A DNA stretch of 64,000 nt from Eledone cirrhosa (GCA_964016885.1 OZ024747.1:48360001-48424000); one strand, 5' to 3'; counted from the stretch's first letter, positions 2,413 through 50,640 are shown. The notes: generated by a model from the sequence alone, not told the origin. Numbers and translations: made by a program.

Positions 2413-2536
2413 TTTAATATAGAAATGGCTTCTACAGGACTAGAACTGTTTCATTCGGGAGAAATAATCAGGAAGTTCTGATGATTTCTCCCGAATGAAA
2501 CAGTTCTAGTCCCGTAGAAGCCATTTCTATATTAAA
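2413..2536. repeat. Fold-back palindrome carrying a partial hammerhead core
   Basis: Arms of ~57 bp (tttaatatagaaatggcttctac.../...gtagaagccatttctatattaaa); CTGATGA 2478-2484, GAAA 2497-2500, GTC 2509-2511; stem I 5' arm missing. Confidence 0.7.
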
Positions 2537-3681
2537 TATTTATTCTCTGCTTTGTATTGAATACCTTACTTACTGTGGTTACCCCCGATTGAACCCGGGA
2601 TAAACTTATATATATATATATATATATATATATATGTGTGTGTGTGTGTCTGTGTGAGTGTGTGTGTGTGGGTGTGGGCGTATGTGTGTGTAATCTTTAG
2701 GTTGTTATTCAATACTAATGACATATATATTTATATATATTTTCCGCCCACTTTGTAATATCTGGAATATATGGTAGGAGTGCCACAGTGGCTTTAGACT
2801 GTACACGTACCAATTGATGGAATGGTAATGTGAGAACTATATCTGAATATTCATAGGAATCTCAAATATTGAGATGTTCAACAAAGAGTGAAGTAAGTAA
2901 TGGAGATGAATTGTTTGTATTTTAGAGATTTTAGAGATTTGGTTGTTTCGGTTCTCTGTGCTTTGAGTTCAATATCATATTAAATATATAAAGTATCACT
3001 CCAGGGCAACAGATTGGCAGAATTCTTAAAGAATTATCTGAAAAGGTTATAGATAATCTGAGTATAGATTCCACACCCTTCTGCAAGGAACTGCAGCCGG
3101 CAGATTGTTTCATTAACCGAAAGACCAATGGAAACATACCTTACATGGTCCAATCTGATGATCATAACCTCCTCCTCCTACATCATCATCATCAAAACTG
3201 GTTTCTAATTTTGACACAAGACTAGCAATTTGAAGAGTAGGAGGAAAATCGATTAAATCGACCCCTAGTACTTTATTTTATCGACTCCGTATGGATGAAA
3301 GGCAAAGTTAACCTCAACAAAAATGGAATTATGAAGATATCTGAAGTAATAATTGTGATTGGAAACCGGGCCAGTGTCTCTCAGTTTATCTCTTCCTGTC
3401 ACGTGTGCACTGTTTCACTACAGGATTAATTAGTGAAAATTAATTTGAGGAAGTTTCACGAGAGCAGGGTGTCTATTAGAACCAGTGAACCGTAGATTTG
3501 AGGAAAATAAAATAAAATAAATGATAGAAACACATCGATCAGTATTATCAATAATGTTAAGGATCGATAACATCATTAAAGATCGATAGCACCATTAAAG
3601 ACTAATTAATTTGGGACGGTTAGTTACAACCAATTACCTCTTGAAATTCCATAAGGTTTGATTTCCTTTTTTATTACAAGA

Positions 3682-4035
3682 GTCGATAACATGTAGTACA
3701 GTACCAGTTATGTACTCGGGACGATAAAATGTAGTACCAGTACCAGTTATGGACCAGGGACGATAACATGCAGTACCGGTACCAGTACCAGTCATGTACT
3801 AAGGACGATAAATGTAGTACCAGTACCAGTACCAGTCATGGACTAGGGACGATAAAATATAGTACTAGTACCAGTCATGTACTAGGAACGATAAAATGTA
3901 GTACCAGTACCAGTCATGGACTAGGGACGATAACATGTAGTAACAGTAGCAGCACCAGCCATGGACTAGGGACCTCGTTCCGTTAAAATAAACTACCAGT
4001 CAAGTACTGGGATCGATAAAATCCAGTACCAGTCA
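3682..4035 (+). repeat. Degenerate ~35-bp minisatellite derived from the SINE 3' segment
   Basis: Units like gggacgataaaatgtagtaccagtaccagtcatg(t/g)acta resemble the SINE segment ggggtcgataaaataaagtaccagtaatgtactgg. Confidence 0.7.
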
Positions 4036-4075
4036 TGATATAAAGTGGTCGATATAATCAACTACAGTTATCGTA

Positions 4076-4260
4076 GTGAAGGCGCATGGCTGAGTGGTTA
4101 GAGAATTGGATTCACAATCTTGAGGCTGTGAGTTCGATTCCTGGACCGGGTGATGCGTTATGTCCTTGAGCAAGACACTTTATTTCACGTTGCTCCTTCT
4201 ACCTGGAGTTGCGACCGATAGATAGTACTAGCAACTGGAAAGACCGACGGAAACATTGTT
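4076..4260 (+). mobile_element. tRNA-derived SINE (second family, V-domain-like)
   Basis: A-box tggctgagtgg, B-box gagttcgattcc, then tgtccttgagcaagacacttta; related minus-strand copy at ~53070-53180. Confidence 0.7.
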
Positions 4261-4338
4261 TCCTCGGTCAGATTTGACGAAAGTCGATCGATCCTTTTTT
4301 TTTTACAGCTATCGTTCAGATTCGAGGATTTCTATAAT

Positions 4339-4528
4339 ATAATTGTTTCTACTTTTAGCACAAGGCCAGCAATTATCCCAGTGCATTACTGGTACTTTAT
4401 TTTATCAACCCCGTAAGGATGAAAAGCAAAGTTAACCTCGGCGGGATTTGAACTCAGACCGTAAAGGGACGTAACTATGCTAGAAAACATGGCGTCCGGC
4501 CCTCTACCGATACTGCCAATTCATTCCA
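4339..4528 (-). mobile_element. tRNA-derived SINE, major ~190-bp family
   Basis: Matches many copies in the window; B-box gagttcaaatccc, body gaggttaactttgcctttcatcc, tail gtagaaacaattatt. Confidence 0.85.
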
Positions 4529-47330: not shown

Positions 47331-47788
47331 AATAACATGTGACAAAGATGGACATATGAATTATAGGTATAGTTCATCTGGCAGATGTCCATACAATTAC
47401 CGTCTACTCAATTTCAGTCTTAAGACAAGGTTGACCTCAGCAGGATAAGAATTCAGAAAGAGCCAGAATAAATACCATAAAGCATTCTATCCGTCGTTCT
47501 AACGACTCTGCCAAATCGCCGCCGCCAGTTTTGTTTGAAGGAAAGACAAAGGCCGATATATCTTGGCACTAATCAGGTGTTTCCTTTCAAATGTAAAGAT
47601 ATAGCAAGGCATTGTGTCCTACGTCCTAACAATTCCGTCAACTCCACACAATACACTGGTTCCTTATTGATCAACCCCGAAAGGGTGAAAGCAAACTTGA
47701 AATCAGACTGTAGAGAGCTAGAAGAAACAACGCAAAACGTTTTTTCAATGCTCTAATGATTCTGCGAGAATATATATATATTTATATA

Positions 47789-48237
47789 CGATATTAATAA
47801 ATGGAAACTATATTTATAAAACCATATTTATTTCATTATATATATTTCAGGGATACCAAATTAAATTATGGTATGCCTTCATCAGACAAAATACAATATA
47901 TAACAGTTTTACAAATAAGCGTTGACGTACCCTATTAAAATACAACCATTGTTTTTGGAAGTAATCCGGATTACTTCCAAAAACAATGGTTGTATTTTAA
48001 TAGGGTACGTCAACGCTTATTTGTAAAACTGTTATATATTGTATTTTGTCTGATGAAGGCATACCATAATTTAATTTGGTATCCCTGAAATATATATAAT
48101 GAAATAAATATGGTTTTATAAATATAGTTTCCATTTATTAATATCGTATATCTACTCCAAATACTTGTCGAGTGCTTTATATCAGTTATAAAAATATTTA
48201 CTTGTTGTATCCCAACAATTTTAAATAGAACTTTTGC
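47789..48237 (+). mobile_element. Palindromic HHR element, family A (second copy)
   Basis: Spacer-less palindrome centred at tcc|gga 47967/47968, arms ~179 bp, 3' tail matches 7298-7382. Confidence 0.9.
48042..48106 (+). ncRNA. Type I hammerhead ribozyme (mirror copy on minus strand 47829-47893)
   Basis: TATTTTGT-CTGATGA-AGG.C.ATACCA...TGGTAT.C.CCT-GAAA-TATATA-TA-ATGAAATA. Confidence 0.85.
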
Positions 48238-48438
48238 ATATATATTTATATATATATATTGAGGCTAGTTTGCATAATTGCAAACGAATAGAATGTTATT
48301 ATTAATATTCGAAAAACTCAGATTACATTTATTGTATTCAGCCATGTAGAGCGAAAAAAGTTTTCTTTTTTATTTGAATTTGGCAAAGCCGGCCATTTAT
48401 CGCTCGTATACAGGAAACTGACTGGCCAGTCTGCTGAT

Positions 48439-48512
48439 ATGCAAATCTGGCTGATCAGTGGATCTGCTAATATGCAGATCTGACTGATCAGTCAGTTTGC
48501 TAATATGCAAAT
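48439..48512 (+). promoter_or_regulatory. Octamer cluster (ATGCAAAT x2, ATGCAGAT x1), putative snRNA-type enhancer
   Basis: Positions 48439, 48472 and 48505 at 33-bp spacing; function inferred only. Confidence 0.5.
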
Positions 48513-48588
48513 CAGGCCGATCAGTCACTGTGTAGGTTTGAAATTAGCATATATTTTCACTAGCTCTGACAGTTGGCAGGTGAACAGT

Positions 48589-48638
48589 GAGCTGTACTGA
48601 TGAAGGGTGATACCCAGAAACATTAGTGTCTGCAGTTC
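48589..48638 (+). ncRNA. Type I hammerhead ribozyme
   Basis: GAGCTGTA-CTGATGA-A GGGT GAT ACCC A-GAAA-CA TTAG TG-TC-TGCAGTTC; GUC site after 48630; first stem II pair is A.A. Confidence 0.8.
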
Positions 48639-50640
48639 TGTTTACATGCCAACACAAGAGCAAGAATGGAGAGTTCCTTCTACTGACATGGCTATAAAAT
48701 TGAGGCTAGTTTGCATAATTGCAAACGAATCGAATGTTATTATTAATATTCGAAAAACTCAGATTACATTTATTGTATTCAGCCATGTAGAGCGAAAAAA
48801 GTTTTCTTTTTTATATATATATATATATATATATATATATATATATATATATATATATATATATATATATATATATTGCTTAGAGCAAACATCACGAGCG
48901 CTCTATCTCAAAATTATTTTTGAAAAGCATTAGAAATGCGCAACCGGTAAAAACTTAAAATTAAAACTGAATACTAACCAATACTTATTACTAATTTATA
49001 CTTATTCCTAATTAAACTATTTTTCACTGGGAAAATTTGTCAGCATTTTCTTTTCCTTTTACTAATATATCACAACTCGTGTGTTACACCTCTATTTTTT
49101 TAAATATATATATACACATACACACACACACACACACACACACACACACACACACACACACACACACACACACACACACACACACACACACACACACACA
49201 CACATATATATATATATATATATATATATATATATATATATATATATATATATATATACAAATATATATATATTTGTATTTATATATATAAATACTGCTG
49301 TTCTTATTCAGATTAGTAAACAATAAATATGAAGATATGTTTTTTTTCTCATAATTATTTCAAAATATTTATATTTTATAAAAAAAAAATCAAAATTGTA
49401 ATGATAATAGAATTTAGAAATGAATATCTGTCAATCTTGAAGCACCTTAGGGTAAACAATATTCATTGCGTAATTTCTTTGTTGGTGTCCAATTGAATAA
49501 ATTGTTGTTACTCACTCACACACATACACTCTCACATACATATACTAAAACAGACACATACAGACATACATTCACGCAGACACACGCATAGCTGTTCACC
49601 TAATTTTTTTTGTCAGTCGTCACATATGTATATGTATGTGTGTTTAATTCTCTGTATGTGTAGATGTGTGTGTGTGTTTAATTCTGTAATGTACGTAACG
49701 AACTCGCAAACACACACACACTCACAGACACATACACACTCTTATACAAAATGTGACGTGGTGGTGGTGGTGGTTTACTAAAGTTGACTATAGAAATACT
49801 AATTTAGATAAAATGTTATATTGTTTTAATCCAAATGAAAATAAAAATTACACGTTGACACTCCCGGGGTATAATACCTTGTAAAATTTGATTTGATTTG
49901 GTCGAGCCGTTTGAGAGACAAATAATTGTATATATACTAGCAAAAAACCCCACCATTTGACTGGTTTTCTGCTAGCATGTATAGTGCGCATATTGATATT
50001 ATAAGCAAATATATATGCATGTAGATATGATAGGTCAAATGAAATCATAATTGACAATATGCACAGAAATTGAACAAAGTCTGTGTTACACTCTCTTCTG
50101 TAATTAGTAACGTAATCCATGATACATTTAAAAAAAGACGATATTATATATAAACTGCATATATAATAAACTAAAATGTTATGGAAACGAAAAAGTAGAA
50201 AATTAGCGACCTAAATATAAACCTTATATAATGATGCAAATAGATGAACATTTATATAAGCGATGTAATAAATGTTATAATATAACGGACGCTAACCGGA
50301 AGTTTTGACATTTGAAAATTTTAAAGAAATGAATCTTAAAATAAGCAATAGTTTATATATAAGAATATTTATGTTTAATCAAGAGCTACAAAATTTAGTA
50401 CATAAATTACATAATTGTTTCTACGTTTGACACAAGGCCAACAATTACCCAGTGCATTACTGGTACTTTATTTCATCGACCCCGTAAGGATGATAAATTA
50501 CATAATTACATAAATTACATAATTACATAAATTACATAATATTCATTCATTATTTATTCAAAGAAATCCAGCTTATTTTACTAACGGGATAAAAAAAATA
50601 TAAAACTGACGCTGTCCCGCACTCCTCCCTTTATTATATT

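Follow-up and report, generated by a model that had tools for sequence, protein, structure and literature searches.

What are the short hammerhead-ribozyme elements that sit beside (TA)n microsatellites in the genome of Eledone cirrhosa, and what enzyme put them there? We took up this question for a stretch of 64,000 nucleotides (nt) of one strand (GCA_964016885.1 OZ024747.1:48360001-48424000), here called the window, with positions counted from its first letter. An earlier reading made from the DNA alone (the sequence-only reading) had described its hammerhead loci as one population of non-autonomous elements, targeted to (TA)n and probably mobilised by Penelope enzymes. We find a mixture of two kinds: ends of Penelope-like elements (PLEs) of the Hydra clade (families A, B, E, G and J), and retrozyme-type units without an open reading frame (ORF; families D, F, H and I). 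Both kinds end in (TA)n, and both were probably inserted by a Hydra-type protein that joins a reverse transcriptase (RT) to a GIY-YIG endonuclease.

Hammerhead folds and the two classes that carry them

A strict type I descriptor (stem I of at least 4, CTGANGA, stem II of at least 3, GAAA, stem III and NUH) returned 12 hammerheads in the window, against a mean of 0.015 and a maximum of 1 in 200 block-wise dinucleotide shuffles. Four further copies, with cores at 2478, 8586, 25523 and 27091, are damaged near-misses. The family J copy (2478) lacks the stem I 5′ arm, which is present in longer genomic J copies, and the inverted family B copy (8586, minus strand) has a weakened stem I. Changes private to the window copy, each seen in 1 of 25 copies, turn GAAA into AAAA (G12A) in family D (25523) and break the first stem II pair in family G (27091). 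All 11 loci of the sequence-only reading are present, and it was correct about the missing stem I arm at 2.5 kb and the mutated core at 25.5 kb. Its description of the loci as mostly unrelated also holds, since within the window only the two copies of family A (A1 and A2, 87%), A with B (28 nt) and D with H (66%) align. Its statement that they are bounded by (TA)n stands in part: at least five units lie at one end or more of 11 of 11 loci, and at both ends of only 8 of 11, the left run being absent at J and D and only 3 units long at G.

Several window loci are single insertions with two or three hammerheads, arranged as long palindromes or partial tandems. Masked self-BLAST, which replaced an inverted-repeat search swamped by a satellite at 57-59 kb, placed palindromes at 6929-7292, 8485-8735, 47784-48151 and 2413-2536, and partial tandems at 25 kb, 32 kb and 48.3-48.8 kb. 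Among the Rfam matches listed for the whole window (150 of 639) there was no hammerhead, those listed being all low-complexity. None of the 28 matches at 48 kb was a hammerhead, and at 32 kb HH9 scored 37.7 and 36.5 bits, under its gathering score of 52. Such sub-threshold scores speak against a place in those Rfam models rather than against the motif class.

The 11 loci represent 10 genome-wide families (A to J), for which a first look gave 789 (A), 141 (B), 3137 (C), 2908 (D), 2439 (E), 3157 (F), 2662 (G), 283 (H), 2499 (I) and 1837 (J) candidates. For each family 40 matches were scored and the best 25-30 loci fetched, a sampling that favours young, window-like copies. In every family, 20-30 of the 25-30 copies retain an intact CTGANGA core. 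Covariation, the absence of which the sequence-only reading had named as part of a refutation, is present: both sides are changed in 6 of 12 pairs of a D/H alignment (20 rows), where the compensatory changes fall in stems I and II, and in 6 of 20 pairs of an A/B alignment (21 rows), with slid controls far lower in both, these controls ignoring the relatedness of the copies and the homologues having been gathered by sequence similarity. From the A/B alignment 15 of 35 rows were dropped as low-complexity or wrong-strand, window B was added and 2 of 37 candidates were left out. Helix III is invariant in both alignments. One compensatory swap in H stem II, T-A to A-T (window 32475/32486), also occurs in locus L052 and in a contig from another organism.

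We also sampled the 3.0-Gb genome in 60 evenly placed 10-kb stretches (599,600 bases), which hold 35 strict hammerheads compared with 0.08 in shuffles. This density of 58 intact motifs per Mb (bootstrap 33-87) corresponds to ~100,000-260,000 genome-wide. Eighteen of the 35 belong to Hydra-linked families, 6 to tandem families, and 11 are unassigned. At least five more hammerhead families, absent from the window, occur in the sample, and the smaller chromosomes carry 20 hammerheads in 25 stretches against 15 in 35 for C1-C4. The window loci are true type I hammerhead folds as far as their sequence can tell, and self-cleavage at the NUH site is predicted for them.

Families A, B, E, G and J, which make up 6 of the 11 loci, are identified by their motifs and surroundings as 5′-truncated or inverted ends of ORF-bearing Hydra-clade PLEs. 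In family A (locus L031), a pseudo-long terminal repeat (pLTR) is followed by a 5′ untranslated region (UTR), an ORF of ~740 codons interrupted by one stop and one frameshift, a 1.9-kb 3′ UTR, a second pLTR and (TA)n. A pLTR-ORF-pLTR copy with 97-98% identity to G was found in L281; inverted B, a truncated Hydra ORF and B follow one another in L280 and L285; a Hydra ORF is succeeded after ~970 bp by E at 88% in L283; and in L363, which holds only the 5′ part of an element, J passes without TA into the 5′ UTR and ATG of a Hydra-like ORF. The layout of an RT followed by a C-terminal GIY-YIG domain between pLTRs is complete in L031 and L281, partial in L280 and L283, and restricted to its 5′ part in L363. 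Pfam gave no family for five Hydra ORF pieces, and the domains were assigned from motifs. DKT replaces DKG in the A, G and E ORFs and in the B-like L282, the region being missing from the J copy and L280. The CxCX5C linker and the CxxC/CxH motif around the endonuclease E and N are found in A, B and G, degenerate in E and absent from the J copy. The RWK position reads RWR in A and E and RWI in G, and has a stop at the W in the J copy. A hammerhead close to the 3′ end and (TA)n insertion both recur in the Hydra-linked families. At L289, a TATA-box-like motif lies 38-29 nt upstream of the J core, ~30 nt before the J 5′-end cluster at the stem I start. The link to Penelope elements drawn in the sequence-only reading is supported by the joining of these five families to Hydra RT/GIY-YIG ORFs; its single non-autonomous population does not extend to them, and the description fits D, F, H and I, which are ORF-less.

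These four families are, judged by their DNA, closed, retrozyme-like units of 441-570 bp. Hammerhead-to-hammerhead spacing is 465-468 in H (23 spacings), 482-485 in F and 471-567 in D, whose unit contains an internal TA tract of variable length. D, F and H form multi-hammerhead arrays with one hammerhead per unit; family I showed no two full hammerheads in tandem in 29 loci, only 441-bp partial tandems. The longest Met-ORF is 37-92 amino acids across the four families and the GC content 0.35-0.39. In each of them the long 3′ end (see below) leads straight into the start of the same unit, with up to 7 units in a row (L164). Folded as circles, the units reach z scores of -16.1 (H), -10.8 (D), -10.5 (I) and -2.9 (F), compared with -2.5 and -2.2 for Hydra 3′ ends (25 shuffles each), and internal TA-rich palindromes add to the self-pairing of D and H. 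In H, array-private variants are common to the units in 8 of 18 multi-unit arrays, against 0.86 when permuted, and such variants also occur across the inversion. Public sequencing runs listed as containing the H unit included no RNA run, an outcome that does not bear on its expression. In contigs from four runs compared with H, three of them with few contigs of low depth, a joint that goes back 465 on the unit was considered as a sign of a circle and rejected, because tandem DNA has the same joint.

Two associations of these units were noted besides. A short interspersed nuclear element (SINE) lies directly upstream of, or between, family I arms in L070, L072, L073, L079, L085, L089 and L093. 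At L279:2740-6091, a D-like array (an inverted piece and three units) is fused to a 5′-truncated Hydra ORF 14 nt past the cleavage site; we do not take it to prove template switching, since a pair of independent insertions accounts for it equally well.

Family C is placed in neither class. It is stub-like, has a common 5′ start and follows the two-end rule described below; no tandem was found in 29 loci, and no link to a PLE ORF in 30 loci, 3 extensions and 4 pattern loci. At L393:1322-1705 and L395:1465-1633 the C long end is joined without TA to a family A piece or an E-like element, chimeras that may reflect template jumps restarting at the long site.

Insertion footprint and proposed mechanism

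In each of nine families tested, insertions stop at two fixed 3′ ends, a short and a long site, which lie 35-120 nt apart and downstream of the cleavage site. Ninety two-armed insertions were scorable among 235 loci, and 88 combined a long with a short arm, 2 were long and long, and 0 short and short. The forward arm was forced to be long by the choice of query in A, C, G, I and J; in B, D, F and H, for which both forward types were sampled, the long and short pairing was found in 37 of 37 two-armed insertions. At A1 (7 kb) the inverted arm stops at the short site and the forward arm at the long site. The arms are identical over 174 of 174 nt in A1 and 176 of 176 nt in A2. The use of one end per arm agrees, in our comparison, with published work on a PLE whose RT starts at two sites (PMC11167929).

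Stubs and tandem units differ at their 5′ ends. Measured from the core, those of G fall between -70 and -66 in 30 of 39 rows, or 28 of 37 minus repeat views of the window copy (scored with three references); those of A lie at -88 to -80 in 14 of 47 rows, and those of B at exactly -64 in 5 of 33, the limit being the A of a TCA in each of these three families. All 17 bystander copies of J have this end between -6 and +15. In D, F, H and I the 5′ ends are spread round the unit, with at most 3-6 of 32-47 per 12-nt window, and any pile-up at the cleavage site of the tandem units is at most slight. The clustered ends of the stubs suggest that cDNA ran off at the transcript start after priming in the 5′ pLTR, and the scattered ends of the tandem units suggest a template without a nearby 5′ end.

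Both classes prefer (TA)n. Of 250 family loci, 232 carry a (TA)5+ tract no more than 330 nt 3′ of their last hammerhead. In the genome sample, on which we ran the kind of descriptor search and flank comparison that the sequence-only reading had proposed for the whole genome, enrichment was evident: (TA)6+ lies within 300 nt downstream of 31 of 35 strict motifs, compared with 18% of random positions and 32% of 236 cores that fail the descriptor having such a tract within 300 nt. CA/TG tracts are not enriched near the sampled hammerheads (3 of 35, against a background of 7%). Moreover, TA stands at the 5′ junction of one-armed insertions in 7 of 10 cases in H and 12 of 17 in F, against a background of 4%, which argues that TA is a target and not only a tail.

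We propose that a Hydra protein, probably as a dimer, would nick both strands of a TA tract, and that RT would be primed at two internal RNA sites 3′ of the hammerhead, one per strand, giving back-to-back arms of which one has a 'tail' and one does not. Where priming takes place in the 5′ pLTR of a Hydra RNA, cDNA synthesis would run off at the 5′ end of that RNA and leave a hammerhead-bearing stub of 130-450 bp whose 5′ end is fixed, a route that would account for the abundance of stubs. Multimeric transcripts of the ORF-less units are predicted to be cut by their own hammerheads and probably circularised, and more than one copying round of such a template would yield tandem arrays whose 5′ ends are scattered. 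The ribozyme activity, the expression and the circles of this scheme are predictions. A bolder version, in which one Hydra PLE dimer makes at least ~100,000 hammerheads by strictly one cDNA per start site on opposite TA strands, by stub run-off and by rolling-circle RT of retrozyme RNA, is offered tentatively, as plausible but somewhat less likely than not.

A number of observations weigh against this scheme. The share of family D in the 232 of 250 loci is inflated by its own internal TA tract, and only 1 of 12 one-armed insertions of family I has TA at the 5′ junction. Longer J copies have another 5′ limit, which lies at a TA tract, and the G hot spot coincides with an ATAT microhomology, so that a joining bias could explain the 5′ hot spots. 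Families D, F, H and I showed no sequence match that would connect them to a Hydra pLTR, their tie being the shared footprint alone, and none of the Hydra ORFs examined is intact, every copy having stops or frameshifts. In the H array L065, 1 of 5 units is without the five shared variants, and the mean distance between H units is 2.7 within arrays and 3.2 between them; given such mixed arrays and so small a gap, a single-circle template is not proven. Isolated hammerhead motifs fold weakly, with z scores of -0.01 to -2.0 against shuffles. Neptune and Naiad enzymes are also reported to prefer (TA)n (PMC8557442), insertion of one PLE in vitro did not need hammerhead cleavage (PMC11167929), and 8 of 9 Xenopus retrozyme dimers were without cleavage, 1 of 9 being cleaved (bioRxiv 10.64898/2026.07.22.740005).

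The alternative that fares best retains PLE mobilisation of the ORF-less units and dispenses with the circle: the templates would be linear, uncut multimers and the hammerheads passengers or inactive. It accounts readily for arms that cross the cleavage site and for 3′ ends all placed downstream of it, for the mixing of unit variants in some arrays and for the want of a full tandem hammerhead pair in the 29 family I loci, and the main substrate in vitro was unprocessed RNA (PMC11167929). The array-private variants common to units and across the inversion, the strong circular self-pairing and the compensatory changes in stems I and II speak for a cut and circularised template instead, and we consider linear multimers less likely than not, but a serious contender.

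It is less probable still that all families, D, F, H and I included, are pLTR fragments of unsampled autonomous PLEs, with the tandems being partial-tandem pLTR debris. Five families did turn out to be of this kind, J being linked only after a second search, and just 25-30 loci per family were examined of 283-3157 candidates. Against an extension to the other four, the long end of D, F, H and I re-enters the start of the same unit, their 5′ ends are scattered rather than clustered, and H, D and I reach far stronger circular folds than Hydra 3′ ends; the sole tblastn match to D involved a query segment of D-like DNA lying upstream of an ORF.

We give little credence to the idea that the association with TA is not enzymatic and stems from tails, growth after insertion or survival in TA-rich junk. 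The two outer ends of a two-armed insertion are both 3′ ends, at which TA could be a tail, TA tracts are common in this genome, as the 18% background indicates, and 5′ TA is absent from most one-armed family I insertions. The 19 of 27 one-armed H and F insertions with TA at the 5′ junction, the lack of CA/TG enrichment, the absence of a long TA tract between pLTR and ORF in full Hydra copies and the (TA)n preference reported for almost all Hydra families (PMC8557442) argue for targeting. Chance matches in AT-rich, palindrome-rich DNA, to which the low Rfam scores and weak folds of isolated motifs might point, are refuted by the shuffles of both window and genome sample, by the intact cores and by the covariation.

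Other features of the window

The hammerhead elements and one related stub are collected in Table 1. The likeness of family K to a Hydra 3′ end was judged by eye, and no hammerhead lies upstream of it in the fetched loci. Further TA-bounded short repeats without a hammerhead lie at 26321-26470, 2302-2412, 9016-9104 and 48877-49040 and recur in fetched loci; together with family K, they may represent additional PLE ends truncated below the ribozyme. A TA-bounded, hammerhead-free piece at 33306-33364 is the tail of family B.

Table 1. Hammerhead elements of the window and family K, assigned by motif and layout; hammerheads were located with the strict descriptor unless marked as damaged
Element	Position	Strand	Hammerheads	Remarks
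Family J stub, Hydra PLE pLTR	2413..2606	+	core 2478-2522 (damaged)	inverted short arm 2413-2471, forward arm from 2478
Family A two-armed stub (A1), Hydra PLE pLTR	6929..7382	.	6970-7035(-), 7186-7251(+)	
Family K TA-bounded stub without hammerhead	7452..7672	-		resembles 3′ end after another Hydra ORF (L031/L279)
Family B two-armed stub, Hydra PLE pLTR	8386..8737	.	8626-8692(+), inverted core 8586 (damaged)	
Family C element	17677..17951	+	17734-17830(+)	long stem II; stub-like
Family D ORF-less partial tandem	25052..25869	+	25517-25559 (damaged)	unit 471-567 bp; private G12A
Family E two-armed stub, Hydra PLE 3′ end	25902..26269	-	25955-26013(-)	
Family F ORF-less unit with short inverted piece	26485..26910	-	26556-26639(-)	tandem unit 482-485 bp
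Family G stub, Hydra PLE pLTR	27025..27279	+	27083-27153 (damaged)	private change of first stem II pair
Family H two-armed array	31756..33262	.	31976-32020(-), 32460-32504(+), 32926-32970(+)	ORF-less 465-468 bp unit
Second family A two-armed stub (A2)	47784..48239	.	47829-47893(-), 48042-48106(+)	87% to the 7 kb copy
Family I partial tandem	48258..48811	+	48589-48638(+)	ORF-less 441 bp unit

A long interspersed nuclear element (LINE) at 11187-16980 has a 402-amino-acid upstream frame, an ORF2 with APE, RT and zf-RVT domains and (TATC)n on both flanks; we take it to be a microsatellite-targeting element of the Tx1/L1 type. A second, truncated copy at 34164-35620 is 74% alike and likewise comes after a (TATC)n run, and directly after this copy, at 35624-35866, lies a decayed fragment of a Hydra-type endonuclease with 44% identity to the family A C-terminus. 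Minisatellites occupy 18743-22219 (24-bp units), 55251-56717 (61 bp) and 57391-59482 (12 bp). The 24-bp array starts at the end of a SINE-like piece at 18672-18742, and the 12-bp array is self-complementary and was a source of false microRNA matches.

Comparison with known systems

Both kinds of element are already known, and the families described here are new members with a mechanistic footprint. The papers compared here state as open both the enzyme that moves animal retrozymes, for which PLEs have been proposed from coexistence and pLTR similarity, and the origin of tandem, inverted and tailed PLE insertions. Young families of both kinds bear a common, countable footprint (two fixed ends, one per arm, and TA tracts) that points to candidate enzyme-RNA pairs and to exact positions of priming. 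If our proposal is true, this footprint would be direct genomic evidence for the enzyme class and priming sites of animal retrozymes, and the inverted, tailed structure of PLE insertions would be explained. At ~58 intact motifs per Mb, the elements are also a large source of long hairpins in the genome.

The Hydra clade (Craig et al. 2021, PMC8557442) is described as having an RT with a C-terminal GIY-YIG-like domain, DKT, a CxCX5C linker, CxxC/CxH and RWK. Families A, B, E, G and J appear to share the Hydra features tested except the exact RWK, a placement made from motifs and layout. They agree with the clade in domains, DKT, linker, CxxC/CxH, a hammerhead near the 3′ end and (TA)n preference, and also in partial tandems, an inverted 5′-truncated copy and a tail at one end only, which that paper reports as frequent. 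They differ in that RWR or RWI stands in place of RWK, units reach ~3.6 kb (G) and ~4.2 kb (A) with 3′ UTRs of 0.9-2 kb compared with the stated '<3 kb', tails measure 55-120 nt in most families rather than 30-40 nt, and the usual form in the loci examined here is a short stub. The suggestion of the sequence-only reading that such elements may be undescribed for this lineage is overtaken for the PLEs, because Files S1/S2 of that paper include an Octopus bimaculoides element, Hydra-1_Obim, that prefers (TA)n and has a canonical hammerhead; the genome studied here adds five or more families, with hammerheads unlike the listed Hydra-1_Obim motif. For retrozymes the suggestion stands so far, as our literature search found no paper on octopus retrozymes or their insertion footprint, although the supplements of Cervera 2020 and Li 2026 may list cephalopod motifs. 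The accessible text of a study of O. vulgaris repeats (PMC13282606) does not mention hammerhead, ribozyme or Hydra.

Retrozymes are known from molluscs (Cervera and de la Pena 2020, PMC7229834), and D, F, H and I, known here from DNA, have the features of non-LTR retrozymes that can be read at that level. As in the metazoan elements of that paper, their units lack an ORF, are low in GC, run head to tail, carry a single type I hammerhead, pair strongly with themselves as circles and coexist with PLEs, the proposed mobilisers. At 441-570 bp they lie at or above the published range of 150-450 bp, and we found no retrozyme description that includes the PLE footprint seen on D, F, H and I (TA target, two fixed 3′ ends and an inverted arm). 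A PLE origin has been argued for vertebrate retrozymes (Li, Clavereau and Pollet, bioRxiv 10.64898/2026.07.22.740005).

The closest mechanistic parallel is the Poseidon PLE of Anolis carolinensis, for which two internal RT start sites were found in vitro to bracket the tail, and both strands of an AT-rich target to be nicked and extended (Frangieh et al. 2024, PMC11167929). Our families share the start sites around the tail, downstream of the hammerhead, the AT-rich target and the use of both strands. Poseidon belongs to another PLE clade and has its start sites in the ORF, whereas the long site lies in the 5′ UTR here, and the pairing of one long with one short arm per insertion is a genomic count made here. 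As for the ribozymes themselves, PLE hammerheads were reported to have low activity in vitro and to need dimers (Cervera and de la Pena 2014, PMC4209133); those of E. cirrhosa, known from sequence, resemble them in a short palindromic helix III, a mismatch or extra nucleotide at the base of helix II, covarying families and large numbers in metazoan genomes.

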